Positions 11,841-50,390 of a DNA stretch of 64,000 nucleotides are shown piece by piece. The position numbers and the translations under genes were made by a program. Every line of letters begins with the position of its first letter. Position 1 is the stretch's first letter. The stretch is taken from the NCBI GenBank assembly GCA_963845185.1, contig CAWJRG010000010.1, positions 256,001-320,000 on the forward strand, in the 5' to 3' direction. The DNA is from an uncultured bacterium. GTDB taxonomy: Bacteria > Oederibacteriota > PGYV01 > CAWJRG01. The notes beneath the pieces were generated by a model. That model saw only the letters and a list, made by a program, of their open reading frames with translations. It did not search any database and was not told where the DNA came from.

Positions 11841-11940
11841 AAATATCGTTTGTTTTGTCAAGCTTCCAGCGCAGACAAAACATTACGAGATTTTGTACCC
11901 GCTCAAGTCCGAGGCCACTGGGCCGAGGACAAGTGGTGCT
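11841..11940 (-). promoter_or_regulatory. Two-hairpin leader element, copy 1 (before gatC)
   Basis: AGCACCACTTGTCCTCGGCC..GGCCTCGGACTTGAGCGGGTAC..GTAATGTTTTG..CAAAACAAAC..TAGGAG; homologous to three other copies. Confidence 0.75.
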
Positions 11941-12016
11941 TTAAAAATGCAAATAAATAACTTACGCCCGTTTTTGCGGGGTACTTTTAAACTTATCTTT
12001 TTTACCTGTACAAAAG

Positions 12017-12045
12017 AATTTATCATAAAAAAATAAAGTATTCAA
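12017..12045 (-). promoter_or_regulatory. Sigma70-type promoter for gatCAB
   Basis: TTGAAT-N17-TAAATT with TGn extended -10. Confidence 0.5.
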
Positions 12046-12101
12046 GGTCTATCTGGAGATTGGAGGTTGATTGTATCCCCAAAAAACCGAATTTTACTGA
12101 T

Positions 12102-13919
12102 TTATTCAGGCTTACTATTATTTTTTGCAGCATTTAAAAGCGTTTTTATTTCTGCGGTCTTTTTCTCGGATCTGGTCCATATATCCACTGCTTTTTTATA
12201 TTCCCCCATGTCATAATATATGTTGCCCAACAGATTGTAAAGCGCGCTGTAATTACCGTGCGCAGTTATAATTCTATTTAAGTATTCTATCGCTTGTTCC
12301 CTATTTTTATCCAAATACATTATCGCAAGCATCAAGCAGGCTTTTTCTGACGGATAATCTGTTGTAAAGTCCTTAAGCTCGCTGAAAGCCTTTTTAAAAT
12401 TAGCTTTGGTATAAAATTCAGAGTCATCTGCAGGTGTTAAATACTTAAAATATTTATCGATTTTTTGGGGGTTTACAAAAATAATAGCTTCATCGTCAAA
12501 ATATACAGCTTTATAATTAAGTCCGGATAACTTATCAATAACTGGTGCCCCATAGGAAAGTAAAAAACTGTTTATGTTGTTTTTTGCAATGAAATCCTTA
12601 TAATTCCCTTGCGTGTAATATATATTAGAATATTCCTGAATTACTGTAAACAGCGCGTTAAGCCTGCCGTTTACCATTATTTTATATTCCGGGAAAAGCA
12701 TATACTCAAAATATCCGCCCCATTCGTAATTTGAAAACAAATTTGGCGGTACTTTTGATTTCGTAATATATTTAAGCGCCTGCTCAGGATAAATACTTTT
12801 TGGAACTGCTGCTATTTTGAATGCCCCAAAAGCAAGCAGTAGCAAAGTCACGGCAATATAAATTTTATTGTTGAATGTAACAAGGTCTTTGTTTTCAGTC
12901 AACAAAACATCCTTCTTAATAGCCAAAAAGATATAATAGGATAAAATTGGCAAGGATGTTATTATAAACAAGGGTATGTTTTTCCTGACTGCTAGACCGG
13001 CTGTCAGGAATAAAAGGATTATAACGCCGTCCTTTAGAAATACCGCGTTTCTCCTTATATCTGAGTCTTTCAAGTTGCGAAAAAATACCAGTATAACCGT
13101 TGCCGAATAAATAAAAAAAACTGAAAAATATGCTGCGTTATCAATATTCGAAAAATCAAATCCAGTCTGCCATTCTTTTATATATTGTTTGATTCCGAAA
13201 TCCTGCATGAAAAAAATTAAACTTTTCGGGCCCTCGGGGCTTATAAACGATGCGAGTATTACGCCGGCAAGTGAAATCAGTAATATTCTAAAATCGTAGG
13301 ATTGTCTCTTTTCCTTTAACTTATATAAATTAACGCTGTAAAAAACACAATATATAAACATAACAATCGCGCCGATTATTTCTGTCGCGTGTATGTTCAC
13401 CCATAAAACAGCTGCAACAGGAAGCGAATAGTATAATATTTTATGGCTTTTTACCGGCTCATGCTCAAGTACATATATGAAATACAGAATGAATAAAAAA
13501 GTGAAAAACTGGGGCCTTAAAACCAGGAAAGGCGACAGCAAATATACGGCAAGAAGCCAAAAAGGCAGTACCGGCTCAAGGTATTTGGCCTGCTGCCTCA
13601 CTCGTATAACAAGAAAAAGCAGGCCAAAAAGTCCTGCTGCCATGAGTATTTTGAAATATAAAAGGTTGTTTATTCCAATAAAAATCGACAACAAATAAAT
13701 AATAACGTCAAAAAGCCATTCATGCGAATACCATTTTTGATTCGCAGCATAGGAAAAAGTATCATATTTCGGCAGGCCGTGAGCTTTTATTATTTCCCTG
13801 CCCGATGACATATGCCACCATGTGTCGCTGTCGAGAAAGTTGTTGTAAGAAATGGAAAAAAGGACAAATAAGGCGGCCAAAAGGAAAAAACCTTTTATTA
13901 GAGTGCTTTTTACGGCCAT
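12102..13919 (-). CDS. Polytopic membrane protein (GT-C-like) with C-terminal TPR
   Basis: DSDTWWHMSSGREI, HEWLFD, RPQFFT, WVNIH, YEWGGY motifs; many TM segments; terminal YNLLGNIYYDMGEYKKAV. Confidence 0.7.
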   Translation of the reverse strand: MAVKSTLIKGFFLLAALFVLFSISYNNFLDSDTWWHMSSGREIIKAHGLPKYDTFSYAANQKWYSHEWLFDVIIYLLSIFIGINNLLYFKILMAAGLFGLLFLVIRVRQQAKYLEPVLPFWLLAVYLLSPFLVLRPQFFTFLFILYFIYVLEHEPVKSHKILYYSLPVAAVLWVNIHATEIIGAIVMFIYCVFYSVNLYKLKEKRQSYDFRILLISLAGVILASFISPEGPKSLIFFMQDFGIKQYIKEWQTGFDFSNIDNAAYFSVFFIYSATVILVFFRNLKDSDIRRNAVFLKDGVIILLFLTAGLAVRKNIPLFIITSLPILSYYIFLAIKKDVLLTENKDLVTFNNKIYIAVTLLLLAFGAFKIAAVPKSIYPEQALKYITKSKVPPNLFSNYEWGGYFEYMLFPEYKIMVNGRLNALFTVIQEYSNIYYTQGNYKDFIAKNNINSFLLSYGAPVIDKLSGLNYKAVYFDDEAIIFVNPQKIDKYFKYLTPADDSEFYTKANFKKAFSELKDFTTDYPSEKACLMLAIMYLDKNREQAIEYLNRIITAHGNYSALYNLLGNIYYDMGEYKKAVDIWTRSEKKTAEIKTLLNAAKNNSKPE

Positions 13920-13920
13920 A

Positions 13921-14238
13921 TTAATCTTTTATTTTGATAAAAACCATTTTTACCGTGTCTTTTGTGTCGTTTGTTATACTGTGGTTTTCTTTTTTCTCCG
14001 CGGTGAACGCGTCGCCTGCTTTTACCCTGAATTCTTTCCCGCCTGCCATAAACTTAGGTGCCCCGGACACAAAATAAAAAAGCTCAATCTCGTCTTCATG
14101 CGAGTGCTCGTTTATGGCATCTCCGGGCTTTATATAAGCCACGCCAAGTGCATATTTTTCCGCGGTAAAAAGGTACTTCGAGCCAGACTGTTTTTCCTTA
14201 TTTTTAAACTCCACCTCATTGTCGTTTACATGTTTCAT
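13921..14238 (-). CDS. Cupin domain protein
   Basis: PGDAINEHSHEDEIELFYFVSG...KAGD...HSITN. Confidence 0.9.
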   Translation of the reverse strand: MKHVNDNEVEFKNKEKQSGSKYLFTAEKYALGVAYIKPGDAINEHSHEDEIELFYFVSGAPKFMAGGKEFRVKAGDAFTAEKKENHSITNDTKDTVKMVFIKIKD

Positions 14239-14247
14239 TTTTCCTCC

Positions 14248-14345
14248 TAAGTAAGAGTTTATTTTGTAAACCCGCAGAGTGAAGCAAAATATTACTCTTG
14301 CTTACACCCGCTCAAGTCCCGATTTTACGAGGGACAAGAGGTGTT
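14248..14345 (-). promoter_or_regulatory. Two-hairpin leader element, copy 2 (before cupin gene)
   Basis: ACACCTCTTGTCCCTC..TCGGGACTTGAGCGGGTG-TAAGCAAGAGTAATATTTTG..CAAAATAAACTCTTACTTAGGAGG. Confidence 0.75.
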
Positions 14346-14443
14346 AAAGTCCGTCGATTTTGCCGGGTGTAAAAACCAAAGCCAAAATCTTACGGAATCT
14401 TGCACCCGTTCTTGTCTCCATAAGGAGTAAGTGGTTTCTTTTA

Positions 14444-15892
14444 TCATTTTTTTTTCTTATATAAAATAATATCCTTTGTTTCGATTTGTTTGTCGTAAAA
14501 AGATCTGAACAATTGCGAAAATGCTTCTTCTTTTTCCTGCCGCGTAAGGACAAAAAAATCAGGCGGGTTATCCGCCATTTTCGCCCCAAACGTTTCCATG
14601 TCGTGCTGATAATACCCGAAAGCGTAAGCGTATACAAACCTGGAAGGCGCTTTAATGCCTGTCAGGAAATATATTTCAGGCTCGTTTGGCCATACAAACA
14701 AAGTGGTTTTGTCTGTTTTTCCCCTGTTTATTATTTCTGCCACGGCGCTGCTCTCATAAAACATTTCCTTGGTATATACACCGCTTTTATAAAATTCTAT
14801 CAATTTTAAATAATTGATGAAAAAAAATATATTAGCGATGAAAAAAACTGCTAATACCGTTAAAGCCGCCTTGTAATTAGTTTTTTTTGTAATCATTGTA
14901 TAAAAATCCCTGAACATTATTGCCGCAAGGATAGCAAGTGCAGGAATAAAAACCATGTAATAATGTGCGTATGTATCCTTAAGTATTCTTATTCCTATAT
15001 ACATTGTTATTACAGAGAAACAAATTAAAAAATTGACCCTGTCTTTTGGAGCTTTGAAAAGCTTGTATGCCGACCATAAAAAGGCCATAAGAAGCAACGC
15101 ATTCGAGTTTATTATTAACCTTAAAACCGCAAAAAGTTCGTCGTTGTTAGTTCCGGTTGCTTTTGCGCCTATATAAAAAAGGTTGTACATGATGTTACAG
15201 TCAATAAAATAATTCAATATACCGTTTTTTACGCACCATATTAATACCAGCAGGGTTATTGTCAGGAACCCAGCTGTGTACCATGCTGCGTAACTGATTA
15301 GGTCTTTTTTATTTTTATAGTAAAAAATAAGGTAAATAACCGGCGCCACAAACACGAATAAAACCATGGTTTTTATGTACACGGCTATGCCTATGAAAAT
15401 GCCTGAAATAAAAAAGTTGACATGCGCATATTTTTTTTCAATATCCGTTAAAAACAGCAATGATAAAATCAGGGGTATCTGCAGAAAAACCTCGGTATTG
15501 GCTGTTTCGCCCCCCATCATATAATTATTCTGGTATACCATGTATATAAGCGCTGCGAGCAGAGATAACCACCTACCGCTTATATGCCGCATAAAAATAA
15601 AAACAAGTATCATGGTTACAATGACGCATAAAGTTGTAAATGTCCTTATGGCATATACGGAAATCCCAAAAAAATCAAAAGCGGTTTTGTAAATATAATA
15701 AATAAAGGGCGGTTTCTGGTCAAAAGTGTCCTTATAGGGCAGTTCGTTATGGTATATGTGCTGCGCCATGTAGGCGTATGTGCCCTCATCCCTGTCAAGC
15801 GGCATGCCGGTAAACGGCACTCTTATGGCAGCCATAATTATTATTAACAGCAGCAGCATGCAGATTTCCAGTATGGTTATTTTCTTTTCCAT
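14444..15892 (-). CDS. ArnT/PMT (GT39/GT83-like) membrane glycosyltransferase
   Basis: LDRDEGTYAYMA, PYKDTFDQKPP, ANTEVF, many TM helices. Confidence 0.8.
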   Translation of the reverse strand: MEKKITILEICMLLLLIIIMAAIRVPFTGMPLDRDEGTYAYMAQHIYHNELPYKDTFDQKPPFIYYIYKTAFDFFGISVYAIRTFTTLCVIVTMILVFIFMRHISGRWLSLLAALIYMVYQNNYMMGGETANTEVFLQIPLILSLLFLTDIEKKYAHVNFFISGIFIGIAVYIKTMVLFVFVAPVIYLIFYYKNKKDLISYAAWYTAGFLTITLLVLIWCVKNGILNYFIDCNIMYNLFYIGAKATGTNNDELFAVLRLIINSNALLLMAFLWSAYKLFKAPKDRVNFLICFSVITMYIGIRILKDTYAHYYMVFIPALAILAAIMFRDFYTMITKKTNYKAALTVLAVFFIANIFFFINYLKLIEFYKSGVYTKEMFYESSAVAEIINRGKTDKTTLFVWPNEPEIYFLTGIKAPSRFVYAYAFGYYQHDMETFGAKMADNPPDFFVLTRQEKEEAFSQLFRSFYDKQIETKDIILYKKKK

Positions 15893-17007
15893 CAGACTGC
15901 CGCTTTAATTATTTTCATTACTTTTTCTTTGTCCATTTCCACCGGGTTATAAGCCATTGAGCCTGTGTAAATTGTCTTTTCCATAATCTCCTGAATCTTT
16001 TCTTTGATATTTTTGTCTATGCCCGTTAATTTCAGCGGGATTCCCATTTTCCTGTTCAGGCTTCTTACACCTTTGATAATGTTAAACTCGAGTATCTTAT
16101 TCAATTTATTGAATTCTTTTCTGCGCTGCCTTGAGTTGAATTCAAGTACATGAGGCATAAGCACAGCGTTTACAAGGCCGTGCGGTACTTTAAGTACTGC
16201 TCCGATCGGGTGCCCAATACCATGTATCGCGCCCAATCCTGCGTTTGCGAAAGCCATGCCTGCTGTAAGGCTTGCCAAAAGCATATCATAGCGTGCTTTC
16301 CTGTTATTGCCGCTTTTATATGCTTTATAAATGCTCAGGAATACAGTCTCGATTGCCTTTACGGACAAGGCCCTTGTGCATTCGTTAGCCGATTTGGAAA
16401 AATACGACTCGGCTGCGTGGCTTAAGGCATCCATGCCGCTGTATGCTGTTATTTTTGGCGGCATTGTGAGGGTCAATTCGGGGTCAGCTATAACAGCGTC
16501 TGATATCAGCGAATCTCCCCTTAAGCTTATTTTAATGCCTTTTAATGTATAAGTCAAAACCGCATTTTTGGTTGTTTCTGAACCCGAGCCCGCGGTTGTT
16601 GGTATGGCTATAAAATAGGCGCCTTTCTGAATTACCTTTGCCTTCTCGTCAAGAAAATCCTTTACGCTTAAATTGTGCCTGAATATGCCTGCCGCGGCTT
16701 TTGCGCAGTCAAGCGCGCTGCCGCCGCCCATGCCTATTATGCAGTCTATATTGTTTTGCCTGGCATAAGAAGCGCAGTAATCAACCGTTTCCACTGAAAC
16801 TTCAGGCTCAACCCTGTCAAATATAAATATTTTTTTTTGCAGGCCGTTTAATATATTTAAGACGCTGTTTAAAACCCCTGATTTTTTTGCTGAATTTTTG
16901 CCTGTAACGACAAGGATATTCTCCCCTTTTACCAGCCCGCCCAGTTTTCCCATGCTGCCGTACCCAAAAAATATCTTCGGAGGGAAAACCATGCTGAATT
17001 CCTTCAT
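15892..17007 (-). CDS. Iron-containing alcohol dehydrogenase
   Basis: GMGGGSALDCAK, IPTTAGSGSE, GMDALSHAAES, HGIGH, PHG. Start reassigned to MKEFS, overlapping the upstream stop. Confidence 0.92.
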   Translation of the reverse strand: MKEFSMVFPPKIFFGYGSMGKLGGLVKGENILVVTGKNSAKKSGVLNSVLNILNGLQKKIFIFDRVEPEVSVETVDYCASYARQNNIDCIIGMGGGSALDCAKAAAGIFRHNLSVKDFLDEKAKVIQKGAYFIAIPTTAGSGSETTKNAVLTYTLKGIKISLRGDSLISDAVIADPELTLTMPPKITAYSGMDALSHAAESYFSKSANECTRALSVKAIETVFLSIYKAYKSGNNRKARYDMLLASLTAGMAFANAGLGAIHGIGHPIGAVLKVPHGLVNAVLMPHVLEFNSRQRRKEFNKLNKILEFNIIKGVRSLNRKMGIPLKLTGIDKNIKEKIQEIMEKTIYTGSMAYNPVEMDKEKVMKIIKAAV

Positions 17008-17801
17008 ATAATAACTGCCCCGCCGTAACCAACAACCTGGCTGTAATCCCCGCTCGCATCCCCGGAATTCATATATCTGATTATCCTTCCTTCTTTTGCT
17101 CCAAGGAGTTTGCACGCATGCAGAAGTACAAAAGTAGGCATCCATCCGCACATTGATATGTCATGTTCCTGAACAGCCTCGACCAGGGCGTTTTCGTCCA
17201 TTTTCTCTATGGCAGAAAGTACAAAAGAATCTTTTGTATGCGCTGTTTTTGAATCCTCATAATGGGTCAGGTCGGTTGACGAAATAAGCAGCACATCCCT
17301 GTCTTTAATGCTTTCGCTTATCGCCCTTGCTGTTTCTTTCAGGTGCTCTATATTGTAATCCCTGAATATGATTGGAACAAAGGTAAAATTTTTCTTGATT
17401 TCCTGCAAAAAGGGCAGCTGCACTTCAATTGAATGCTCCCTTATATGCGCCGAAGTGTCCTTTAGCGCGTTATCTGAATTTTTTAATATGTCGTTTGCCA
17501 GCGGCTGGTTTATTTTGACATCGCCGAGCGGCGTCCTCCATACTCCTTCGTTCATGATTGAAATCGCCGGCCCCATGCCCGTATGGTTCGGCCCCATTAT
17601 TATTGCTATGTCCGGTATGTTTATTGACGAATACACTTCGCCCGCCACTTTCCCGGAATAAATATATCCTGCGTGTGGCACGACAATACCTTTAACGTCG
17701 AGCTTTTTTTCTTTTTCTACGATGTATTTATTGACATGCTTTTTCAGGGCATAAGCATCTGCCTCGTAAAACATTCCTGCGACAGCAGGGTCCCTTAGCA
17801 T
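17004..17801 (-). CDS. amrB: MEMO1 family / AmmeMemoRadiSam system protein B
   Basis: RDPAVAGMFY, PHAGYIYSG, GPNH, EHSIEVQLPFLQ, SSTDLTHY, SMCG, VVGYGG. Start at MLRDP behind SD AAGGAG. Confidence 0.92.
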   Translation of the reverse strand: MLRDPAVAGMFYEADAYALKKHVNKYIVEKEKKLDVKGIVVPHAGYIYSGKVAGEVYSSINIPDIAIIMGPNHTGMGPAISIMNEGVWRTPLGDVKINQPLANDILKNSDNALKDTSAHIREHSIEVQLPFLQEIKKNFTFVPIIFRDYNIEHLKETARAISESIKDRDVLLISSTDLTHYEDSKTAHTKDSFVLSAIEKMDENALVEAVQEHDISMCGWMPTFVLLHACKLLGAKEGRIIRYMNSGDASGDYSQVVGYGGAVII

Positions 17802-17815
17802 TTTAAACTCCTTAC

Positions 17816-17914
17816 GATAGCTTTTGTTTTGTCCAGCCGAAGGCGCCGGCAAAACATTACGCTATCTTGTACCCGCTCCAGTCCGAAGCCTACAGGCCGA
17901 GGACAAGCGGTGCT
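17816..17914 (-). promoter_or_regulatory. Two-hairpin leader element, copy 3 (before amrB)
   Basis: AGCACCGCTTGTCCTCGGCC..GGCTTCGGACTGGAGCGGGTAC..GATAGCGTAATGTTTTG..CAAAACAAAAGCTATC-GTAAGGAG. Confidence 0.75.
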
Positions 17915-17947
17915 ACAATATCGTTTTGACTTTTTTTATCCTAAAGC

Positions 17948-17976
17948 ATTTTACTCAATTTTCCTACTTGTGTCAA
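17948..17976 (-). promoter_or_regulatory. Sigma70-type promoter upstream of copy 3 / amrB
   Basis: TTGACA-N17-TAAAAT. Confidence 0.6.
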
Positions 17977-18030
17977 TCGGCTAGGCAGTTTCTAAAACTA
18001 CTTGTCCCAATATGTCTTTTCTAATTTAGA

Positions 18031-19953
18031 CTATTGATTAAAAAATTCTTTTACGTCATCAATATTGCGGGTAATATTTACTTCCGGCAAAGCTGCGATA
18101 AATTCCCTGCCATAAGATTTTGTCGTTATCCTTTTATCAAGAATCATCACAACCCCGGTATCTTCCTTTGACCTTATAAGCCTTCCAAATCCCTGTTTCA
18201 GCATAAAAATGGCTCTTGGAAGCGAATACTCCCGGAAAGCGTCGTCTCCCCTATCTTCGATATACCGGTGTATTGCCTTTTGCAAAGGGTGCTCGGGCAT
18301 CTCAAAAGGCAGGCGCGTAATAACCACACATTTCAAAATATTCCCGCTTATATCTATGCCCTGCCAGAATGTGTTTGTCGCGAACAGCACGGATCGCCTG
18401 TTTTTAAAATTCGCAATAAGCTCGTTCGGGTTCAGTTCTCCCTGCATCATAAATTCCCTGTCCCTGTTTTCCCTTTTCAGGGTTTTATAGGTTTTTTTCA
18501 TGAACTCGGTATTTGTGAAAAGTATTAACATGTTGCCTGATACCGTACCGATTATATCCGCCAGCTTATTTGCCAGGCTTTCCGAATAATTGCTGTCCTG
18601 CGGCGAGGCTATGTCGCTTTCAAGGTATAAAAGCGCCTGCTTTTTGTAATCAAACGGCGATTTCAGGAGCTTTGTCCGTGGGCCTGAAAACCCAAGCTGT
18701 TTTATTATATAATCAAAATCCTTTCCCGTCGAAAGCGTTGCCGAAGTAAAAATAGTGCTGTCGTAATTATCCAGCACCGTAGCAGCGAATATTTTATCAA
18801 TCCTGTAAGGAGTAATATAAAACACCGCGTTGTCTTTGCCCTCCATGGCGACCCAGTAAAAAAACTCCTCTTCATCGCGCTCTTGCCAGTGCTCCATGGT
18901 GCTTATGTATTCGTTGCACCTTGAAAGCAGGAACTCATAGTACTTTTTTAAATCCTCATTCCTTCCGGTTTCATACGCTATTGATTCAGCCAGCTCGAAC
19001 AGGGTGTCTTTAAGCCTGGTGTGGATGTCTATTTTATCCTTAAAAGGGAAATCAATAAGCACTGCTTCTTTTTCGTAAAGCCTTAATTCTGGGTTATTGT
19101 AAACAGCTTTGCTAAATTCCGTAAAATCCTTCCGCGCGGATATCAGGTGGCTGTGCAGGTTGCTGTATGTTTTTTTAGTGAGCCTGTCTTTTTGCCTTAA
19201 AAATTCCTCAAGCTCGGATATTAATTTCAAATATCCCTGCGTTGAAAAACGCCTGCTAAGCATGTCCCTGGCCACGTCTTCCACCCTGTGGCCCTCGTCA
19301 AAAAGCGCTATTGAGGAAGCCGGCAGGATCTTGTTGTCCACAGCCATGTCGCTGAAAAAAAGATGGTGATTTATGACTATAATATGCGCTTTTGTGAGTT
19401 TCCTTTTCATCTTGAAATAATAGCATTTAAAAAAATCCTCGCAACTTTCGTCCCTGCACAGTTCCGGCATCCTGTTTACTTCGCTCCATGCCTCGTCCGG
19501 TATATGAAACCTGCTGTTCCCGCGCAGTCCTGCCCCGTCCTTTAAAAACTCGAGCATTTCGTTGATTGAGTTTGTATTCATAAAAAGCGTGCCTTTATTT
19601 TTAAATTCAGCAGCCCTACGCATGCACATGTAATTTTCCGCGCCAAAAGCCACCTCGTACTTGAGCTCGGGGAATATTTTTTTAATGACAGGAAGGTCTT
19701 TTTTGTATATTTGCTGCTGCAGGGCCTTGGTATAGGTTGAAACAAAAACCTTTTTCTTGTTTGTTATTGCGTATTCCGCCAGCGGCATGAGATAGGCAAA
19801 AGTTTTCCCTATGCCCGTGCCTGCTTCTATTATAAGGTTGCCCTTGCCGTTATTTATTGTTTCTTTTATTATCTCGGCCATCATGACCTGCTGTAATCTT
19901 TCCTCGTAATTTTCTATGTGAAGGGGCAGCTCTTTTTCAAAATATTTCTTCAT
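18031..19953 (-). CDS. DinG/YoaA family ATP-dependent DNA helicase
   Basis: EAGTGIGKT, Fe-S cysteines (NYMC, C.DESC..F.KC), DEGH, TSATL, FWQGID, KQGFGRLIR. Confidence 0.92.
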   Translation of the reverse strand: MKKYFEKELPLHIENYEERLQQVMMAEIIKETINNGKGNLIIEAGTGIGKTFAYLMPLAEYAITNKKKVFVSTYTKALQQQIYKKDLPVIKKIFPELKYEVAFGAENYMCMRRAAEFKNKGTLFMNTNSINEMLEFLKDGAGLRGNSRFHIPDEAWSEVNRMPELCRDESCEDFFKCYYFKMKRKLTKAHIIVINHHLFFSDMAVDNKILPASSIALFDEGHRVEDVARDMLSRRFSTQGYLKLISELEEFLRQKDRLTKKTYSNLHSHLISARKDFTEFSKAVYNNPELRLYEKEAVLIDFPFKDKIDIHTRLKDTLFELAESIAYETGRNEDLKKYYEFLLSRCNEYISTMEHWQERDEEEFFYWVAMEGKDNAVFYITPYRIDKIFAATVLDNYDSTIFTSATLSTGKDFDYIIKQLGFSGPRTKLLKSPFDYKKQALLYLESDIASPQDSNYSESLANKLADIIGTVSGNMLILFTNTEFMKKTYKTLKRENRDREFMMQGELNPNELIANFKNRRSVLFATNTFWQGIDISGNILKCVVITRLPFEMPEHPLQKAIHRYIEDRGDDAFREYSLPRAIFMLKQGFGRLIRSKEDTGVVMILDKRITTKSYGREFIAALPEVNITRNIDDVKEFFNQ

Positions 19954-20035
19954 TAAATACCTCTTATAGCTTGGCATATAGAAAGGCTTAATTCATCCCC
20001 CAACCGGATTTGGGTATTTCTTCCCGGATTAAATC

Positions 20036-20758: not shown

Positions 20759-20875
20759 TTCAAAACCTCTTGATAAAATATTTGCTATATTGTATCAACA
20801 GTTTTTTATAAAATCAAGTATATCCCCGCCCATTTCCCGGGTCCCTAATCCCATTTCTCGGATCCCGTATTCAAA

Positions 20876-22018: not shown

Positions 22019-22047
22019 AATTTTCCAATCTGTAATTTATATACATT

Positions 22048-23211: not shown

Positions 23212-23231
23212 AATTTCACTCCAAGCAACAG

Positions 23232-30203: not shown

Positions 30204-30209
30204 TCTCTA

Positions 30210-39590: not shown

Positions 39591-39633
39591 TTACCTACCT
39601 CTACGTAAAAAATATGAAGTAAAATTATATAAT

Positions 39634-42361: not shown

Positions 42362-43302
42362 TGCTTCTCCTCCCCAGCTTCATCCATTAACAAAACAAGC
42401 GAACCTAAAATCATGTACGTTTCTATTACGCATAAATTAATATCTGTTTCTTTAAGATCGTTATGCGTTCCTTTCGAAAGTATATTATGGAGAAAAATTA
42501 CTCTACTATCTAAATCGGATACCCTTGCCATTAATAATTTTGCTTTATCGTCTTTTGCTTTTTGATCAATAAATGCAATAATTCTATTCTTATATTTATC
42601 ATCTGTTACATCAATTTCTGTCCCGTCATTACGAACAAATTTTTCTTTTCTAGCAGGAAATACCACATTTGCAAAAGCTTTAATTATATTTCGACATGTT
42701 GATAAGGCCTGCGACCATTCTTCAGGATTTGTTGAAGGAAGTCTGTCATATACAGCAATAAATTTGTCTATAATATCCGGAGAAATTTCCTGAAGTTTCT
42801 TATTAACATCTTTTTGCATTTTGATAAATATATCTTCAAGTATTTTTCCAAATTTATATTTGTGATTTATCCTCACAACATAAATATAAATATGTGATCG
42901 TATTTTTGCTAATAATCCCTTATTTTTCTTAATTCTTGCAGCAAGATGATTTCCCTTTGAATCCTTATATGAAATTTGATCTGTTTCTATTTCACTTTCT
43001 ATTTCCGGCACCGAATCAGTCCAATATTGATATATTTCTTTTCCCGCATTATCTTTTGTCTTTATATACCTTCCTGACCATCCAGCAAATGCTTGTAATT
43101 TATCATCTTTTATATCGGTAACATTCTGTTCTTGATAACCCATAAGTTCTGCAGCAAACCATTTTTCCGCCTCTTTATCATTTGTTAATCTTGCCAATTT
43201 TTGACACTTAAATAGAATCTTCTCAAAAGCTATTCTGTCCATTTCAAAATCTGAAATAATTTCTTCAGATAAATCTATTATGTTTTTATCTCGTTCGCTC
43301 AT
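42358..43302 (-). CDS. AbiTii-like N-terminal domain protein with helical (HEPN-like) C-terminal domain
   Basis: ILFKCQKLARLTND..AEKWFAAELMGY matches the AbiTii pattern; C-terminus EEWSQALSTCR..KYKNRI..LSKGTH. Recognised by eye only. Confidence 0.7.
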   Translation of the reverse strand: MSERDKNIIDLSEEIISDFEMDRIAFEKILFKCQKLARLTNDKEAEKWFAAELMGYQEQNVTDIKDDKLQAFAGWSGRYIKTKDNAGKEIYQYWTDSVPEIESEIETDQISYKDSKGNHLAARIKKNKGLLAKIRSHIYIYVVRINHKYKFGKILEDIFIKMQKDVNKKLQEISPDIIDKFIAVYDRLPSTNPEEWSQALSTCRNIIKAFANVVFPARKEKFVRNDGTEIDVTDDKYKNRIIAFIDQKAKDDKAKLLMARVSDLDSRVIFLHNILSKGTHNDLKETDINLCVIETYMILGSLVLLMDEAGEEKQ

Positions 43303-43316
43303 AAACTCACCTCACA

Positions 43317-45104
43317 TTATTTTATCTCATTTAAATATCCTTCTATTTTCTTTTCCTTTAAAGTCAGTTCTTTCTCCAGTCCTTTTATCTCTTTCCAGAC
43401 CTTATCCGTATCAATATCCTCGATTTCCTCTTCTTTAGAGCAGTACATGGTTACATTAAGCGACCAGCCATTGTTTTCAATTTCCGATATACTCACAACA
43501 CGGGAAACGCCTTTTTTGCCCCTGTAACCGTCGTTATTTATAAATTCCCCGTAATAACCTTTGATTTCTTCAATATTTTTATCAGCAATAATATTTAATT
43601 TCCTGACATCGGGATGTTTTTCAAATAATCCGGAAGCGTTAATAAACAAAACCTTATTTTTCATCTCTTCTTTACGTTTTTTGTTTATAATGATTACACC
43701 GCCCGGCGCGCCCGTGTTATAAAAAAGCTTTTCAGGCAGCAGCATGACGCATTCGATAAGCCCTTTTGTTAAAACCGCCTGCCTTATATTTCCTTCTTTC
43801 CCGCTTCGGAACATTGCGCCGTTATCTATCACTATACCCGCCCTTCCTTTTTTATCGTCAAGGCTTGCGATTACATGCTGTATCCATGCCCAGTCAGCGG
43901 ACTGGTTGGGCGTAAAACCGTAGGTAAACCTTTCTTTTACAAAATTTCCTTTTTTAAGGTTTTCTTCGGGATACCCGTCCTGGTTCCACGGCGGGTTCAC
44001 AAGGACAATGTCGAATGTTTTTAGTTTTCCTTTGTCCTCGAACTTCGGATATTTAAGGCTGTCGCTTAATTTCAAAACATCCTGCTTTATGCCGTGAATG
44101 TACAGGTTCATCTGCGCGAGCGCGACTGACTGGGCGTTTGCCTCCTCACCGTACAGGGAAAGGGTCTTTGCTTTTCCTGGCCCTTCCTTTTCAGTCACGT
44201 ATTTATATGCCTGCAACAGCATATTTGCCGCGCCGCAGGCCGGGTCATAAACATTCTCGCCTGATTTTGGTTTTGTTATTTCCACAAGAAGCCTTATCAC
44301 TTCTTTTGGCGTGTACACCTCGCCTTCCTTTGCCTTTTGCGGCGCGAAATACCTGATTATCCATTCATAAGAGTCTCCAAGCACGTCGTCGGAAACGTTT
44401 GAAAGCCGTTTTTCGCTGAACAGCTCGACAAGCTGCCTTAACAGCTCGGAATTTTCCTTGTTCCCGGAAAACTGGATAAAGGAAGTCTGTGATACTATTT
44501 CTTTTATCTTAGGGTTATGGTCGCCGATCTCCTTCAATATTTCCGACAACCCTTCGGGCAAATGGGACACATCGTTTCTTATGTTGTCCCAGAAATTCAT
44601 ATTGACACCCAGGTATTTGTCGGGCACGATAAAGTCATGATACGCTTCGTTCATGGCTTCTTTCTTTGCCTGGTTCTCCGAATACCCGTCTGCTTTTGCT
44701 TTTTCATATTCGTCTTCAAATTCCTTCTGCCACTTATCGCTTATCCTTTTTAAAAACAAAAGCACGAGAATAAACTTATAATCAACCCTTGTGCGTATAA
44801 GGTCCGCCGCGCGTTTTAAAATCTTTTCTATGTCATCCCTTGTCAATTCCTTGCTTTCGGAAAGCATTGGTTTCACCCCGTCGCCGCATTCCAGGAGCCT
44901 GTATATTTTTCTTCTGGCATTTTCCGGGTCTTTCACCACCTCAAGGCACTTATCCTTGCTGATGGAGGAAAGAATTGTCAATACCTGCTTTTCTTCGTCT
45001 CCATATGTGTCTTTAAGAATCCTGGCGGCATTCTCAAACCTGAACTTTCCTTCTCCCAGTTTATCCTTTAATATCTGGTATCTCTTTCTAACCCATTTAT
45101 CCAT
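43317..45104 (-). CDS. hsdM: Type I RM methyltransferase subunit M with N-terminal extension
   Basis: GEVYTP, YDPACGAA, NPPW (m6A motif IV), LPEKLFYNTG; about 85 extra N-terminal residues. Confidence 0.95.
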   Translation of the reverse strand: MDKWVRKRYQILKDKLGEGKFRFENAARILKDTYGDEEKQVLTILSSISKDKCLEVVKDPENARRKIYRLLECGDGVKPMLSESKELTRDDIEKILKRAADLIRTRVDYKFILVLLFLKRISDKWQKEFEDEYEKAKADGYSENQAKKEAMNEAYHDFIVPDKYLGVNMNFWDNIRNDVSHLPEGLSEILKEIGDHNPKIKEIVSQTSFIQFSGNKENSELLRQLVELFSEKRLSNVSDDVLGDSYEWIIRYFAPQKAKEGEVYTPKEVIRLLVEITKPKSGENVYDPACGAANMLLQAYKYVTEKEGPGKAKTLSLYGEEANAQSVALAQMNLYIHGIKQDVLKLSDSLKYPKFEDKGKLKTFDIVLVNPPWNQDGYPEENLKKGNFVKERFTYGFTPNQSADWAWIQHVIASLDDKKGRAGIVIDNGAMFRSGKEGNIRQAVLTKGLIECVMLLPEKLFYNTGAPGGVIIINKKRKEEMKNKVLFINASGLFEKHPDVRKLNIIADKNIEEIKGYYGEFINNDGYRGKKGVSRVVSISEIENNGWSLNVTMYCSKEEEIEDIDTDKVWKEIKGLEKELTLKEKKIEGYLNEIK

Positions 45105-45129
45105 GCTTTCCTCCTGATATACAAGTAAT

Positions 45130-45217
45130 CAACCAAATAGGTTGTATATTCCCGAAACTCAAAAAAAAAGACCTTTTTACTTATTCTAATTATAACGGCT
45201 GGATGCAAAAAAGTCAA
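45130..45217 (-). promoter_or_regulatory. Promoter of the RM operon and downstream palindrome
   Basis: TTGACT-N17-TATAAT (45217-45189); CAACC-N5-GGTTG at 45130-45144 just before the hsdM SD. Confidence 0.55.
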
Positions 45218-45301
45218 GCTCCTTTCAGCTATCGGCTGCTCCCCTGCATCAGGAATATCCTAGAAATTTCAGGAAGAACCTATAAATTCCACTTAACACC
45301 C

Positions 45302-46144
45302 TTACTCTCCTGCCACAAGATAATCCCCAGCGTGGTACGAGCTCCGGACATAAGGCCCGCTTTCGACGTGCAGGAACCCCATATCAAGCGCGATATTTTT
45401 ATATTCTTCAAATTTCTCCGGCTTAATAAACTCAACAACCTCGTAATTCTGGTTTCCAGGCCTCAGGTACTGACCTATGCTTAAAAATTCGCATCCCGCT
45501 TTCCTCAAATCGCTGAAAACCCCTTTAACTTCGTCATGCTTTTCACCCAGGCCGAGCATTATGCCCGATTTTGTGAATATATTCGGTGTTTTCCTGGCAA
45601 AAGCCAGCACTTGGAGGCTCTTTCCATAATCAGCGCCCTTCCTTATATTATATAAAGAAGGCACAACCTCAAGATTGTGGCCGAAAATCTCGGGCTTCGC
45701 GTCAAGGACCTTCTGTATCGCTCTAAAATCACCTTTAAAATCCGGGGCAAGTACTTCTACTTTAATGGCTATATTGTGCTCTTTGATCAGTTTTATCGTC
45801 TGCGCGAAGATTTCTGCCCCGCCATCCTCCATATCGTCCCTTGTGACGGAAGTTATCACAACATATCTTAATTTCATCCTTTTTACAGCTTCAAGCACCC
45901 TTTTTGGTTCATCTTTATCAATTGGCTTTGGCGTGCCCTTTTTTACACTGCAAAAACCGCACTGCCTTGTGCACGTGTCTCCGAGTATTAAAAAAGTCGC
46001 GGTGCTGTTGTGGAAGCACTCCGAGATATTCGGGCACCTTGCCTGGTGGCAGACAGTATGCAGGCCCAGGTCCTTCATGTAATCGTCAGTGCCCGCGATC
46101 TTTTTAAAATCTATTTTCTTGTTGAGCCAGTTTGGTTTTCTCAT
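45302..46144 (-). CDS. lipA: Lipoyl synthase
   Basis: TVCHQARCPNISEC, CTRQCGFC, VITSVTRDD, GQYLRP, VRSSYHA. Confidence 0.96.
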   Translation of the reverse strand: MRKPNWLNKKIDFKKIAGTDDYMKDLGLHTVCHQARCPNISECFHNSTATFLILGDTCTRQCGFCSVKKGTPKPIDKDEPKRVLEAVKRMKLRYVVITSVTRDDMEDGGAEIFAQTIKLIKEHNIAIKVEVLAPDFKGDFRAIQKVLDAKPEIFGHNLEVVPSLYNIRKGADYGKSLQVLAFARKTPNIFTKSGIMLGLGEKHDEVKGVFSDLRKAGCEFLSIGQYLRPGNQNYEVVEFIKPEKFEEYKNIALDMGFLHVESGPYVRSSYHAGDYLVAGE

Positions 46145-46148
46145 GATA

Positions 46149-46985
46149 TTATTCGCCTTCCATCGTCAGGGCAGGCTCATTCTGCCCGTCGGCCGTATTT
46201 TTCAGGTTCCATTCGTCTTTTGAATATTTCTCATCTATTAATCTTTTTATTGTATTTCTTTCATCAACTGTCAAATCCTGTTCTTTCAGGCCGAACCTGA
46301 ATGTGCGGTCAAAAGCCGCGATAAATCTTTCTACAATTTCGAAAACCATGATTTGTTTGTTTGTGAATTCATTAAGCGCACCGAAATTGGCGTAATTAAT
46401 ATCGGCGTTGAAATATTTTGATATTTTTCCACTGTTTATCGAAAGAGGTATTGACCCGTGCTGAAAAATCAATCCCTTTTTCCTTGCCTGCGCATTTCCG
46501 CCTATTTTCTTGTTTGCAATGATTATGTCGTATTCTTCCTTGCCTGAAAAACAAAACCCAGGCCGTTCCTCGGGCCTCGTGTAACTGATAACATCTTTCG
46601 CGTATCCGGGTTCCAGTCCGAAATCCTGGTATAATTTCATGATAAAAGAATTCAGCCTTTCAAAAGATTTTTTTACAGGCGCTTTTTTACATCTTATATC
46701 CTCTTCAGAACATATGATACAGTAAGTAAGTTCATCATCATGCAGTATCGCTCCGCCCCCGGTCATCCTCCTGACAATTGCAACATTATCGTTCCTGCAT
46801 TTTTCAACGCTTACGTCCCTTCCTGCGTCCTGGTATTTCCCGACGGATATCCCCGCAGGCTGCCATGAATAAAGCCTGAGGATCGGCGTTTTATTCAGCT
46901 TATAAAATTCAAACAATGACTCGTCTATGGCCATGTTTTCAAAAGCATGGTATGCTTTATACGGTATGTAACGCCAGGATTTCAT
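46149..46985 (-). CDS. Lipoate-protein ligase / octanoyltransferase (LplA/LipM family)
   Basis: NMAIDE, LRLYSW, VRRMTGGGAILH, KKIGGNAQ, QHGSI. Confidence 0.9.
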   Translation of the reverse strand: MKSWRYIPYKAYHAFENMAIDESLFEFYKLNKTPILRLYSWQPAGISVGKYQDAGRDVSVEKCRNDNVAIVRRMTGGGAILHDDELTYCIICSEEDIRCKKAPVKKSFERLNSFIMKLYQDFGLEPGYAKDVISYTRPEERPGFCFSGKEEYDIIIANKKIGGNAQARKKGLIFQHGSIPLSINSGKISKYFNADINYANFGALNEFTNKQIMVFEIVERFIAAFDRTFRFGLKEQDLTVDERNTIKRLIDEKYSKDEWNLKNTADGQNEPALTMEGE

Positions 46986-47020
46986 TTATTTTATCTCCCC
47001 GTTTCCTGCTGTATATATTT

Positions 47021-47048
47021 GTTGAGACGTTTTGCAAAGCGTCTCAAC
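47021..47048. repeat. Isolated REP-like hairpin
   Basis: GTTGAGACGTTTTGCAAAGCGTCTCAAC near-perfect palindrome after the gcvPB stop. Confidence 0.5.
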
Positions 47049-47055
47049 TTTTAAA

Positions 47056-48495
47056 TTATTCACAAATAATTTTTACTTCTTTAGCCGCTTTTGTTTCGTC
47101 CGGCCTTGATATCTCGGTCATCATTGGCGCGGACTTGATTTTTTCCGGGTCTTTCTCGGCTAGCCCGGCTATTTCTATCATTGCTGAAATAAATTCATCC
47201 AGGGTTTCTTTTGACTCTGTTTCCGTAGGCTCAATCATTATTGCTTCTTCCACCACCAGCGGGAAATATATTGTCGGCGGGTGTATGCCGCGGTCTATCA
47301 GCGCTTTTGCTATGTCAACGGCGTGTACCCCGTTTTTTGCCTGGTTTTTAGCTGAAAACACGCATTCATGCATGCATGTTTTGTCATAAGGCAAATAATA
47401 ATATTTTTTCAATTTTTCTTTAACATAATTCGCGTTTAAAACTGCTTTCTCAGCTACGTCAATCAGGCCTTCCTTCCCGAGCATTAAAATATAAGCGTAA
47501 GCCTTGAGCATGACTCCGAAATTCCCGAAAAACGAAGCCACTGCTCCTATTGTGTCCTCTTTATGTATAATTGCCTTGTACTGGTTGTCCATTCCGCGTT
47601 CCACGATTGGCGTCGGTAGCAATCCGGAAATTTTCTCTGATACTCCCACAACGCCCGAACCCGGGCCACCGCCTCCGTGAGGTGTTGAAAAAGTCTTGTG
47701 CAAATTTATGTGAATTATGTCAAAACCTATGTCCCCGGGCCTTACTTTGCCAAGAATTGCGTTTAAATTCGCGCCGTCGTAATACATGAGCGCGTCGTAC
47801 TTGTGTGATATATCTATTATTTCCTTTACCCTTTTATGGAAAATCCCGACCGTATTCGGCATGGTCATCATTACGCCTGCGACCTCGTCGTTCATCTTTT
47901 TCTTGAACAGGTCAAGGTCCATCTCGCCCTCGCTGTCTACAGGCACTGATATTACAGTGTAACCGCCCATTGCAGCGCTCGCAGGGTTTGTGCCGTGCGC
48001 CGAGTCCGGTACTATTACGTATTTTTTCTTATTGCCCTTGTTTTTATGGTAAGCAGCCATTAAAAGTATGCCTGTTAATTCGCCGTGTGCGCCGGCATAT
48101 GGCTGTGTAGTGAACTTTTTCATGCCTGTTATCTCTGAAAGCAAAAAGGACAGATTATAAACAACCTCCAGCGCTCCCTGGGCCGACTTTTCGTCTATAT
48201 ACGCGAGGTATGGATGCAAATCAGTAAACCCGGGCAGCACGCTGACTGCCTCGTTTATCTTGGGATTATATTTCATGGTGCATGAGCCCAGCGGATAAAA
48301 ATGCGTGTCGACCGAGAAATTTTTACGCGATAAATTTATATAATGCCTTATTACGTCAAGTTCCGAAAGTTCGGGCAAATCAGCGTCAATACTGCTTAAA
48401 TATTTAGCGTCTATTTTTTTGATTGTATCCGGATCCGCTTTCCCCGCGTCAACGCCTTTTCTTCCTTTTACGCTCTTCTCAAAAATCAGCTTCAT
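47056..48495 (-). CDS. gcvPB: Glycine dehydrogenase (decarboxylating) subunit 2
   Basis: FYPLGSCTMKYNPK, SAHGTNPASA, HINLHKTFSTPHGGGGPG, MIEPTETESK. Confidence 0.96.
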   Translation of the reverse strand: MKLIFEKSVKGRKGVDAGKADPDTIKKIDAKYLSSIDADLPELSELDVIRHYINLSRKNFSVDTHFYPLGSCTMKYNPKINEAVSVLPGFTDLHPYLAYIDEKSAQGALEVVYNLSFLLSEITGMKKFTTQPYAGAHGELTGILLMAAYHKNKGNKKKYVIVPDSAHGTNPASAAMGGYTVISVPVDSEGEMDLDLFKKKMNDEVAGVMMTMPNTVGIFHKRVKEIIDISHKYDALMYYDGANLNAILGKVRPGDIGFDIIHINLHKTFSTPHGGGGPGSGVVGVSEKISGLLPTPIVERGMDNQYKAIIHKEDTIGAVASFFGNFGVMLKAYAYILMLGKEGLIDVAEKAVLNANYVKEKLKKYYYLPYDKTCMHECVFSAKNQAKNGVHAVDIAKALIDRGIHPPTIYFPLVVEEAIMIEPTETESKETLDEFISAMIEIAGLAEKDPEKIKSAPMMTEISRPDETKAAKEVKIICE

Positions 48496-49823
48496 AGACT
48501 CTCCCTCACTGCTTTTGCAAAAAGGTTCATCTCGTTTTCCGTGCGTTTCTCTGTAACCGCGACAATAAGGTAATTGTCTTTGTTGTCGTAAAAAAGCGAG
48601 GCAGGCAGGCCTGCGCTGAATCCTCGGCTCAACATTTTCTTGGTAAAATCCTCTGCCTTGACAGGCAGTTTTATCGTGAATTCGTTGAAAGTCTGGCCTG
48701 ATTTCACCTCGATATTTTTTATTTGCATAAGTTTTTCTTTCAGATATCCGGCTTTTTCAAGGTTTATCAACGCGAGGTTCCTGAATCCGTCTTTACCGAG
48801 CAGGGAAAGGTATACTGCTGCACGTAAAGCGCAAAGTGCCTGGTTTGAGCATATGTTTGAAGTGGCTTTTTCCCTGCGTATGTGCTGCTCCCTTGCCTGT
48901 AAAGTCAGGACAAAACATCTTTTGCCGTTTTTATCGACCGTTTCCCCTGCTATCCTGCCCGGCATTTTCCTTGCGAATTTTTTGTCTGCTGTCATTATAC
49001 CGAGGTACGGCCCTCCGAAAGAAAGCGGCATGCCGAGCGACTGACCGTCTGCCACTGCAATGTCTGCTTTCATTTCTCCTGGCTTTTTAAGCAAGCCAAG
49101 GGATATAGGATAAAAAACAAGTATATTAAGAGCGCCTTTTGACGTTGAGTATTCAAAAATATCACTGTAATCGTCAACCACTCCAAAAAAATTCGGGTTC
49201 TGCATTATTACGGCCGCAGTATTGTCGTCTATAAGCGAATTTATTTTTTTTCTGTCAGAGCTTATGTCGCTTAAATCAGCTTCGACTATCTCGACATCGA
49301 GGTTTATTGTGTATGTATATAGTATCCTTGTATATAAAGGGTTTACTCCCTTATCTATTACGACTTTGCTTTTATTTGTTATCCTTATTGCCATTGCCAT
49401 TGCCTCGTATAAGGCAGTGCCGCCGTCGTACAAGGAAGCGTTTGCCGCGCCTAACCCGGTCAGCCGCGCCATCATTGTCTGGTACTCGAATATCGCCTGT
49501 AATGTGCCCTGGGAAGCTTCCGGCTGGTAAGGCGTGTATGCAGTGTAAAACTCAGAGCGCGAAGATACGCTGTCAACCGCAGCAGGTATAAAATGGTCAT
49601 AATATCCCCCGCCTAAAAAATTCACGTAATCTATCCTGTTTTTATCAGCAAGCGTTTTAAAAACTTTCATTGTTTCATATTCAGTCATGCCTGCCGGGAT
49701 GTTGAATGATTTTGGGGAAAATTCTCCGGGTATGTCCTTAAATAAATCGGAAACAGACCCAATGCCTATGCCCGAAAGCATTTCCTTTACTTCTTTTTCA
49801 GTGTGAGGCGTGAATGTTGCCAT
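48492..49823 (-). CDS. gcvPA: Glycine dehydrogenase (decarboxylating) subunit 1
   Basis: EFYTAYTPYQPEASQG, NASLYDG, REQHIRREKATSNICSNQ. Confidence 0.96.
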   Translation of the reverse strand: MATFTPHTEKEVKEMLSGIGIGSVSDLFKDIPGEFSPKSFNIPAGMTEYETMKVFKTLADKNRIDYVNFLGGGYYDHFIPAAVDSVSSRSEFYTAYTPYQPEASQGTLQAIFEYQTMMARLTGLGAANASLYDGGTALYEAMAMAIRITNKSKVVIDKGVNPLYTRILYTYTINLDVEIVEADLSDISSDRKKINSLIDDNTAAVIMQNPNFFGVVDDYSDIFEYSTSKGALNILVFYPISLGLLKKPGEMKADIAVADGQSLGMPLSFGGPYLGIMTADKKFARKMPGRIAGETVDKNGKRCFVLTLQAREQHIRREKATSNICSNQALCALRAAVYLSLLGKDGFRNLALINLEKAGYLKEKLMQIKNIEVKSGQTFNEFTIKLPVKAEDFTKKMLSRGFSAGLPASLFYDNKDNYLIVAVTEKRTENEMNLFAKAVRESL

Positions 49824-49824
49824 T

Positions 49825-50211
49825 TTATTCAAGGCCTTCTATGTATTTTTTGTACGCCGTTGTATCCATCAGGTTCTTGGTTTCAGCCGCGTCCTTTACT
49901 TCAATCTCTGCTATCCATCCGGCTGTATAAGGTTCTTTGTTTATAAGCTCGGGTGTAGCGTCAAGGCCGCTGTTTATTGCCACAACCTTGCCGGATAAAG
50001 GCGAATAAACGTCGCTTGCCGCTTTGACCGACTCCACTCCTGTCAAAACCTCGGATTGTTTCACCTGCTTGCCTGTGGCCGGCAGCTCGACAAAAGTAAT
50101 ATCTCCTAATTTATGCTGGGCATAATCAGTAATGCCGATTTTTGCTTTTGCACCTTCTATTTTTGCCCATTCATGTTCCTTTGTGAAATAGTAATTGTCA
50201 GGTACGTTCAT
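49825..50211 (-). CDS. gcvH: Glycine cleavage system H protein
   Basis: HEWA, GITDYAQ, ESVKAASD (lipoyl Lys), PELIN. Confidence 0.97.
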   Translation of the reverse strand: MNVPDNYYFTKEHEWAKIEGAKAKIGITDYAQHKLGDITFVELPATGKQVKQSEVLTGVESVKAASDVYSPLSGKVVAINSGLDATPELINKEPYTAGWIAEIEVKDAAETKNLMDTTAYKKYIEGLE

Positions 50212-50221
50212 TTTAAGCCTC

Positions 50222-50390
50222 CTAGCAAGAGTTTATTTTGCAAACCGTCAACAGGTGCAGCAAAATATTACTCTTGCTAGCACCCGTTCAAGTCCGAGGC
50301 CGTCAGGCCGAGAGTTAAATAGTCCTGTGGACTATTTAACGGGTAGCTTCCATAAGTTGGTATAATATAAAACTACCCACAAGTGGTGCT
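50222..50390 (-). promoter_or_regulatory. Two-hairpin leader element, copy 4 (before gcvH), carrying a ~66-nt insertion
   Basis: AGCACCACTTGT[insert]CTCGGCC..GGCCTCGGACTTGAACGGGTG-CTAGCAAGAGTAATATTTTGC..GCAAAATAAACTCTTGCTAGGAGG. Confidence 0.75.

Follow-up and report, generated by a model that had tools for sequence, protein, structure and literature searches.

A dispersed two-hairpin repeat of about 100 nt as a probable portable structured leader rather than a riboswitch in candidate division FCPU426

The two-hairpin element described here recurs immediately upstream of Shine-Dalgarno (SD) sequences in the genome of an uncultured bacterium of candidate division FCPU426. The stretch of 64,000 nt that was analyzed (the window, C10:256001-320000) belongs to a 3.50-Mb genome in 11 contigs that is 99.4% complete. 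It carries four copies of the element, before gatC (copy 1), a cupin gene (copy 2), Memo/amrB (copy 3) and gcvH (copy 4). These copies had been noticed in the sequence as a four-copy motif and a candidate riboswitch or cis-regulatory RNA, and their places, minus-strand orientation and folding are all borne out by the sequence and by matches to R1, a covariance model built in this analysis. The number four did not hold, as R1 gives 148 matches in the window's genome, a lower bound because 150 candidates were scored, and finds a degenerate fifth copy in the window. The element is a dispersed repeat family of about 100 nt, most likely a portable structured leader rather than a riboswitch.

A structured repeat beside ribosome-binding sites

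The exact core GGACTKGARCGGGT occurs 83 times in the window's genome compared to 0-1 times for a reversed control, and a sequence profile (nhmmer) trained on 49 clean copies gives 195 matches. The copies are found on contigs C1, C5, C6, C8, C9, C10 and C11 beside housekeeping genes, and the sequence of hairpin 2 divides them into discrete subfamilies. Paralogous copies have a mean pairwise identity of 0.68 and a nearest-neighbour median of 0.88, and a twin of at least 95% identity exists for 11 of 117. They are old, yet still paired.

Hairpin 1 consists of P1, a conserved asymmetric internal loop and P2, while hairpin 2 has a lower stem, a UAA/AA loop, an upper stem and a small apical stem. 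A structure of 33 pairs, drawn by hand, was tested against 32 sequences (23 of the window's genome, nine of relatives). In this alignment 87.9% of the cells are paired, compared to 34-42% when the partners are slid by 1-3 columns, and both sides have changed in 22 of the 33 pairs. The covariation score is 0.414 versus 0.06-0.11 with slid partners, and 0 of 500 shuffles reach it; the covariation suspected from the four window copies is thus real. P1, P2 and hairpin 2's lower stem are also recovered independently by RNAalifold. When only relatives are used (42 copies, in an alignment that was fitted to the model and hence is biased towards it), 90.2% of cells are paired, 31 of 33 pairs show double changes and the score is 0.509 versus 0.05-0.08. 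The helices are kept through compensatory changes, and the near-invariant parts are the loops, namely NCUYG opposite CUUGANCG in hairpin 1 and GUAA...(U)AAC in hairpin 2. The hairpins originally described thus hold, with P1 as RYACC/GGGURY, the loops NCUUG, CUKGARCG and GUAA...AAC, and covarying lower and upper stems in hairpin 2. Judged by information content, the element starts with A-R-Y-A-C-C after a motif-less A/T-rich flank and ends right before RGGAG. The relatives' copies have 61 G-U cells versus 9 A-C cells, so the strand called sense is the folding strand. A C-A mismatch within P1 (GCACC with GGGUAC, e.g., at 11840-11940 and 17814-17914) looks as if the two halves came from different subfamilies, and recombination between copies is one possible cause.

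A copy was called docked when the start codon of an open reading frame (ORF) of at least 60 aa lay within -3 to +13 nt of the profile end, a span that includes the SD. By this measure 104 copies are docked, among 147 that retain the 3' end; they stand in sense orientation at the starts of unrelated genes. The raw list has 103 starts 0-11 nt past the profile end, compared to 22 of 147 within 0-25 nt in the mirrored control. Since the 5' coding sequence is unrelated in 103 of the 104 docked genes, the docked copies represent independent events and not duplicates of one gene front. The orientation seen in the window, i.e., the same as that of the downstream gene, extends to the whole genome: when 15 of 119 near-full copies were set aside as lying inside crude ORF calls, 79 sense versus 6 antisense copies were found between co-directional genes, 12 faced a divergent gene and 7 lay at convergent ends. 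Additionally, 25 of 86 copies begin at most 30 nt after the end of the upstream co-directional gene. No terminator was seen between element and start codon, neither at the four window copies nor in the content of the 3' border across copies.

An SD-like word is present at 10 of the 43 undocked copies; about 15 others lead directly into the next copy, and the remainder have no such word. As SD-like words are few at undocked copies, and as an SD is already present at a Memo/amrB site that lacks the element (see below), the SD belongs to the gene and not to the element. The SD is also predicted not to be sequestered by the element: in the folding model its unpaired probability averages 0.474 at docked genes, close to the value of 250 further strong-SD genes (0.478; p = 0.76), and shuffling the element lowers it to 0.419 (Wilcoxon p = 0.003 against the native value). 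An SD match of at least 6 nt is found in 69 of 104 docked genes versus 927 of 2718 genes in the comparison. Such stronger SDs could mean that the element lands by preference at strong SDs, or that it is retained at well-expressed genes.

For functional annotation a random 40 of the 104 docked genes were compared with Pfam, giving matches for 32 and none for 8. Among the matched genes are argG, metK, a carbamoyltransferase, a Mur ligase, ATP synthase alpha, secG, a purQ-like amidotransferase and a TetR regulator, together with genes for dehydrogenases, transporters and secreted or surface beta-propeller proteins. A link through amino-acid or nitrogen metabolism, suggested from the four window copies, is not seen among the annotated docked genes. 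Signal-peptide-like N-termini are not enriched (32 of 104 docked genes versus 794 of 2731).

The element also forms arrays. Seven head-to-tail copies with an exact 100-nt period lie at C9:916552-917180 (minus strand) upstream of a gene of about 1100 aa, the last of them with an extra insert in hairpin 2, and arrays of 2-3 copies are found in relatives (L039, L043 and L055). Five gene-less copies (C6:76481, C10:198782, C9:532601, C9:528257 and C10:350401) share a 3' sequence of about 30 nt, CAAGGGAGGGAGCATAT..AGAGAATTTTT, and so belong to a larger composite repeat.

Orthologous sites and distribution among relatives

The metagenome contig L047 is syntenic with the window at about 12-20 kb, the TPR protein being 53% and the cupin 82% identical. 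Its Memo/amrB gene has the same TTGACA-17-TAAAAT promoter and the same SD-N6-ATG, with 15 nt in place of the 101-nt element. At the gcvT-gcvH junction, the 187-nt gap in the window is made up of 8 nt, the element with a nested repeat, and then AGGAGG-N6-ATG. The corresponding gap in relatives, measured at 22 loci, ranges from 1 to 377 nt and is at most 27 nt in 14 of them. R1 found no copy at this junction in 23 loci from 22 other genomes of the order, while the window's own copy was found. These comparisons show a gain of the element at the two window sites, where it arrived later than the gene's SD. The copy before the cupin gene, in contrast to these, is present in both the window and L047 at about 85% identity, while the remaining intergenic region is unalignable. 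Together with the old but still paired paralogues, this conserved copy within an unalignable flank argues that individual copies are constrained and did not arise in a recent neutral burst.

Of 24 genomes of the order, 12 gave R1 matches at E-values up to 1e-3. Copies in the other genomes number 18 in one, 7 in one, 4 in one and 1-3 in the others. None of 75 genomes in the remaining phylum sample gave a match at E-values up to 1e-5. An exact-pattern scan of one genome for each of 185,579 species returned 13 loci, with titles that include candidate division FCPU426; the two matches outside the lineage, titled Cypionkella and Planctomycetota, are not copies by R1. Likewise, 60 exact 15-mer matches on viral contigs include no copy by R1. 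In these searches the family is thus confined to one order of candidate division FCPU426. Within the order, SD-docked copies are also present in a genome of another family (G001), where the docked genes are without an orthologue in the window's genome.

Some genomes contain variants of hairpin 2 only. Two such modules (L065 in G003 and L067 in G021) follow the stop codon of a gene with a Cys-rich, zinc-finger-like C-terminus, and the gene end is duplicated in tandem together with the hairpin-2 module.

Readings of the element's function and mobility

The closest known analogue is the REP2 repeat (CREN) of Neisseria. In the available part of its description, REP2 is 120-150 bp long, lacks terminal inverted repeats, is predicted to form two internal stem-loops as RNA and lies immediately upstream of unrelated genes beside the ribosome-binding site (RBS); it carries its own promoter, RBS and ATG in about 26 copies, and the Borrelia plasmid repeats IR-A/IR-B are grouped as similar to it (Delihas, 2011; PMC3184786). 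Set beside that description only, our element likewise has two stem-loops and no inverted ends, and stands directly upstream of unrelated genes. However, it is without promoter or SD, as copy 3 is downstream of the gene's promoter and copy 4 begins 8 nt after a stop codon. It further differs from what is described of REP2 in its approximately 150 copies, its strong covariation and the gene-less copies in sister families.

REPs are typically 20-40 nt long and located at gene 3' ends. REP/BIME-RAYT systems and the hairpin repeats of IS200/IS605 resemble the element in having imperfect hairpins with conserved bulges, a strand-specific orientation, and no inverted ends or duplications, but the two hairpins of our element are unlike each other and the window's genome has no Y1 or TnpB Zn-ribbon gene. 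ERIC/IRU, BOX and Correia are co-transcribed intergenic repeats, and several such families are true MITEs (miniature inverted-repeat transposable elements) with inverted ends and target duplications. Like these and the Bacillus cereus bcr repeats, the element is a small structured repeat found in 5' and 3' untranslated regions (UTRs) and between the cistrons of operons. The accessible parts of the sources report no fixed distance to the SD for any of them, whereas 104 of 147 copies of the element are docked, without inverted ends or duplications. For bcr, the available part of one report states that about half of the copies are transcribed, that bcr3 goes with a longer mRNA half-life, and that bcr10 and bcr18 are conserved structures in 5' UTRs (PMC3446304). 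The alternative first offered for the window copies, a domesticated MITE that supplies an SD, comes closer than a riboswitch. The element shares with MITEs its presence or absence at orthologous sites, but the SD is the gene's own, and terminal inverted repeats and consistent target duplications, as hallmarks of a MITE, are missing. An integron attC array was also considered and rejected, as the copies are dispersed over seven contigs; no integrase search was made. A literature search that did not cover subscription journals gave no description of this two-hairpin family, and repeats are not mentioned in the accessible part of a report on the FCPU426 lineage (PMC7031533).

On balance, we favor the reading that the element is a dispersed, once-mobile structured RNA module, retained as a generic part of 5' leaders or of the space between cistrons rather than as a sensor. 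The module would have spread to about 150 sites, mostly in sense orientation and immediately 5' of a pre-existing SD. Depending on the site, it would separate the gene's own promoter from the SD or one cistron from the next, and it is presumably co-transcribed within the mRNA. It is predicted to fold autonomously into two hairpins that end at the SD and leave it free. In this position it could insulate the RBS from pairing with upstream RNA, an effect that is small in silico, and as a structured 5' boundary of the cistron it could protect from decay or act as a processing point. The two conserved loops are probably recognised by a host factor.

Several observations weigh against this reading. 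In family f10, where neighbours were mapped at 10 loci, the element runs antisense to both of them at 8, and among 25 copies in relatives, 18 abut the terminator of an oncoming gene and 2 are SD-docked; 10 of these terminator-side hairpins also qualify as terminators on the element's own strand. Since the f10 copies are not placed as leaders, acting as a leader can account for only part of the picture. The SD becomes just slightly more accessible, and in this respect docked genes do not exceed other strong-SD genes. Searches gave no mobilising enzyme, with 0 Y1 (PF01797) and 0 TnpB Zn-ribbon (PF07282) genes in the 99.4% complete genome, while a control search with PF01797 gave matches in 6 of 14 reference genomes. 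Nor did the flanks show a consistent target duplication: a shared flank word of at least 6 nt is present at 8 of 94 non-tandem copies, in inconsistent positions, compared to 4.5% in the mismatched-pair control. Finally, in the 32-sequence alignment, which is dominated by the window's genome, 26 G-U versus 27 A-C cells make the wobble test not strand-specific and leave room for folding as single-stranded DNA (ssDNA). This count is due to the frequent C-A mismatch in P1, which carries 14 of the A-C cells.

The 3' neighbour of the element is a purine run in both contexts, i.e., the SD in the window's genome and the terminator A-tract in f10, which suggests a landing preference that is specific for sequence and strand. 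This opens for a purely selfish mobile DNA element, in which hairpins and loops are recognition structures for strand-specific (ssDNA) transposition or recombination, the preferred target is 5' of an A-rich purine run followed by GG (the SD here, the terminator A-tract and stem in f10), and effects on expression are incidental. We regard this as a real but minor possibility. Presence and absence at orthologous sites, roughly 100 independent dockings, the A/T-rich 5' flank and the tandem arrays are all in line with it, as is the 3' flank, which is RGGAG here and an A-run with a GC-rich hairpin in 18 of the 25 relatives' copies. The same is true of the second repeat that is inserted into the first at loop positions and in matching orientation (see below), and of P1 in the window's genome tolerating A-C, which equals G-U on the other strand. 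However, such an element would have to move without terminal inverted repeats (when the 5' end is compared with the reverse-complemented 3' end, the best 16-nt identity has a mean of 0.50 in 117 copies, versus 0.36 in the uncomplemented control), without consistent target duplication, and without a Y1/RAYT or TnpB gene in a 99.4% complete genome. The copies are moreover old, diverged and still paired, and an orthologous copy has been kept while its flanks were randomised, which is unlike a neutral parasite; the 61 G-U versus 9 A-C cells in relatives fit RNA or one DNA strand only. Other candidates for mobilisation were rejected. Split halves at C10:624-625 kb, examined as an autonomous parent element, merely flank a desaturase-like gene, and none of the six reverse transcriptase (RT) genes and seven IS110-family genes is linked to the element, with the exception of a single intron copy that landed next to one.

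The near-invariance of the loops while the stems covary, and the fixed docking distance from the SD, would also suit a post-transcriptional regulon, in which an RNA-binding protein or the ribosome reads the loops, docked copies are the mRNA targets, and gene-less copies and arrays serve as decoys, as in CsrA/CsrB. The seven-copy array with its exact 100-nt period and the 2-3-copy arrays in relatives could be such decoys, and the f10 copies opposite both neighbours still fold on their own strand, for which they would need their own transcription. We nevertheless find a regulon unlikely, as the 40 annotated docked genes show no functional theme, the promoter-like 5' flank in f10 fails the consensus scan, an own-strand terminator is seen in only 10 of 25 relatives' copies, and the seven-copy array, being upstream of a large gene, may be a simple leader. 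In one genus the 5' flank is conserved with a TATTAT/TATAAT-like box, but it fails the promoter scan. The idea that f10 copies are small RNA genes with promoter and terminator was weakened, since the 5' flank is not called a promoter and the hairpin is mainly the neighbour's terminator; the promoter call at L040, on the opposite strand, weakens it further. Simple loop-pattern searches, a weak test, for mimicry of rRNA or other cellular RNA gave chance sites alone outside the family.

An RNA processing element, either a self-cleaving ribozyme or an RNase III-type substrate (the coaxial hairpin 2 of about 20 bp) that defines the 5' end before the SD, would explain the position between cistrons (25 of 86 copies start at most 30 nt past the upstream gene's end, copy 4 being 8 nt after the gcvT stop), the conserved internal loops and the termination of a long hairpin at the SD. 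It is quite improbable, since no Rfam ribozyme family matched and no cleavage site can be identified in the sequence. As for the riboswitch or ligand-sensing leader originally proposed, the element does resemble riboswitches and other Rfam leaders in being a structured 5' leader with variable stems and a conserved core adjoining the SD, and copy 2, alone among the four window copies, has a minimum-energy fold that pairs the SD. Within the window's genome the orientation is not random and the covariation is strong, and Rfam 15 gave no match at gathering thresholds in the 64-kb window, with nothing beyond chance hits, such as miRNA and snoRNA models, at E-values up to 10 around the copies, so that the original view that no known family is involved holds. 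Even so, a riboswitch is contradicted by copy number and gene diversity and is very unlikely: at least 148 copies in discrete subfamilies precede functionally unrelated genes (argG, metK, secG, ATP synthase alpha, regulators and surface proteins), there is no general SD sequestration and no terminator or other expression platform, and copies are gained and lost at orthologous sites, gene-less, or placed antisense or beside terminators in relatives.

A bolder proposal, to which we give a small chance, is that the element forms the RNA half of a lineage-wide system. A host factor would read the two invariant loops, about 100 mRNAs that carry the element at a fixed distance from the SD would be its targets and gene-less copies and arrays its independently transcribed decoys, the whole having been built by an element homing to purine-rich ribosome-binding sequences via a strand-specific mechanism without the usual transposases.

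Copies in the window and other elements at translation starts

All features of the window described here are on the minus strand. Copy 1 (11840-11940; R1 93.7 bits, E = 1.7e-19) is followed by the SD AGGAG at 11840-11836 and the ATG of gatC at 11829-11827, identified as GatC by Pfam. Copy 2 (14249-14345; 81.3 bits) precedes the SD AGGAGG at 14248-14243 and the ATG at 14238-14236 of the gene assigned to the cupins by Pfam, with a PMT-family gene (Pfam) upstream. Directly upstream of copy 2 is the degenerate fifth copy, a tandem remnant at 14346-14438 (R1 31 bits, E = 4.3e-5), which nhmmer matches in part, at model positions 36-106. Copy 3 (17814-17914; 86.3 bits) has the SD AAGGAG at 17813-17808 and the Memo ATG at 17801-17799 (Memo by Pfam). 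Copy 4 (50224-50390) scores 52.1 bits over 50223-50326 and lies between gcvT and gcvH, assigned by Pfam as GCV_T and GCV_H. It begins 8 nt after the gcvT stop (50399-50401), and is followed by the SD AGGAGG at 50223-50218 and the gcvH ATG at 50211-50209. As had been reported, the stem base adjoins the SD, the distance to the SD start being 0 nt in copies 1, 2 and 4 and 3 nt in copy 3.

The 5' part of copy 4 extends to 50390 and is interrupted by an insert. This extra length is not part of hairpin 1 but a nested, unrelated second repeat of about 65 nt (element-2, 50313-50378) with two hairpins of its own, inside the 5' strand of hairpin 1. Copies 1 and 3 had been said to follow sigma70 promoters. 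This is correct for copy 3, where Memo/amrB's own sigma70-type promoter TTGACA-17-TAAAAT (17948-17976, 11 of 12 matches) lies about 34 nt upstream; for copy 1 there is only a weak 9/12 site about 80 nt upstream, adjoining the terminator of the preceding gene. Single-sequence folds of copies 1-4 have z-scores of -1.8, -4.9, -3.6 and -6.7, and the fold of copy 1 is weak on its own, with 6 of 200 shuffles equally stable. In the minimum-energy fold of copy 2 (14236-14345), the 5' CCUCUU of P1/loop 1 pairs with the SD AGGAGG and P1 is not formed; this alternative requires that a variable loop base is U, which is true in a minority of copies.

A mechanical ORF list prolongs Memo (17004-17852) to a TTG within copy 3, while the gene probably starts at the SD-spaced ATG (17801-17799). 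In this way, copies of the element can mislead start-codon calls by false upstream starts.

Element-2 is about 65-70 nt long and consists of GGGTAG...CTACCC followed by a perfect 12-bp hairpin. It is present at 30 sites in the window's genome (e.g., C5:230158 and C9:112341) and at none in 23 other genomes of the order. By a strict pattern there are at least 22 copies, mostly within the first element. It is almost always found inside the first element in the same orientation, at its loop positions or just before the SD.

The window's genome also contains six identical RT-bearing elements of about 1.9 kb at C9:700695, C9:811636, C9:845477, C10:383780, C10:832145 and C11:62007 (loci L132-L135). 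They begin with GTGCG, which we take to be the typical 5' end of a group II intron, and are inserted one base after the start codon, following ..GGAGGcggttATGA. The genes that are hit continue with a signal peptide, and the RT-bearing elements end with their own SD and an ATG in frame with the interrupted gene. One of them has landed just past an element-2/SD junction. Since the second repeat and this group II intron-like element both also land at an SD or a start codon, mobile RNA or ssDNA elements of this lineage may preferentially insert around translation starts.

For annotation, the two-hairpin family should not be labelled as a riboswitch. About 3% of the genes in this genome carry the same structured module of about 100 nt at a fixed distance from the ribosome-binding site. 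Should the module affect the stability, processing or translation of mRNAs, it would be a natural equivalent of the synthetic "insulator" parts that are used for context-independent expression, and would show how a mobile sequence can rewire a hundred gene leaders together. Should a factor bind it, the family would represent a new global post-transcriptional system in a candidate phylum without a cultured member.

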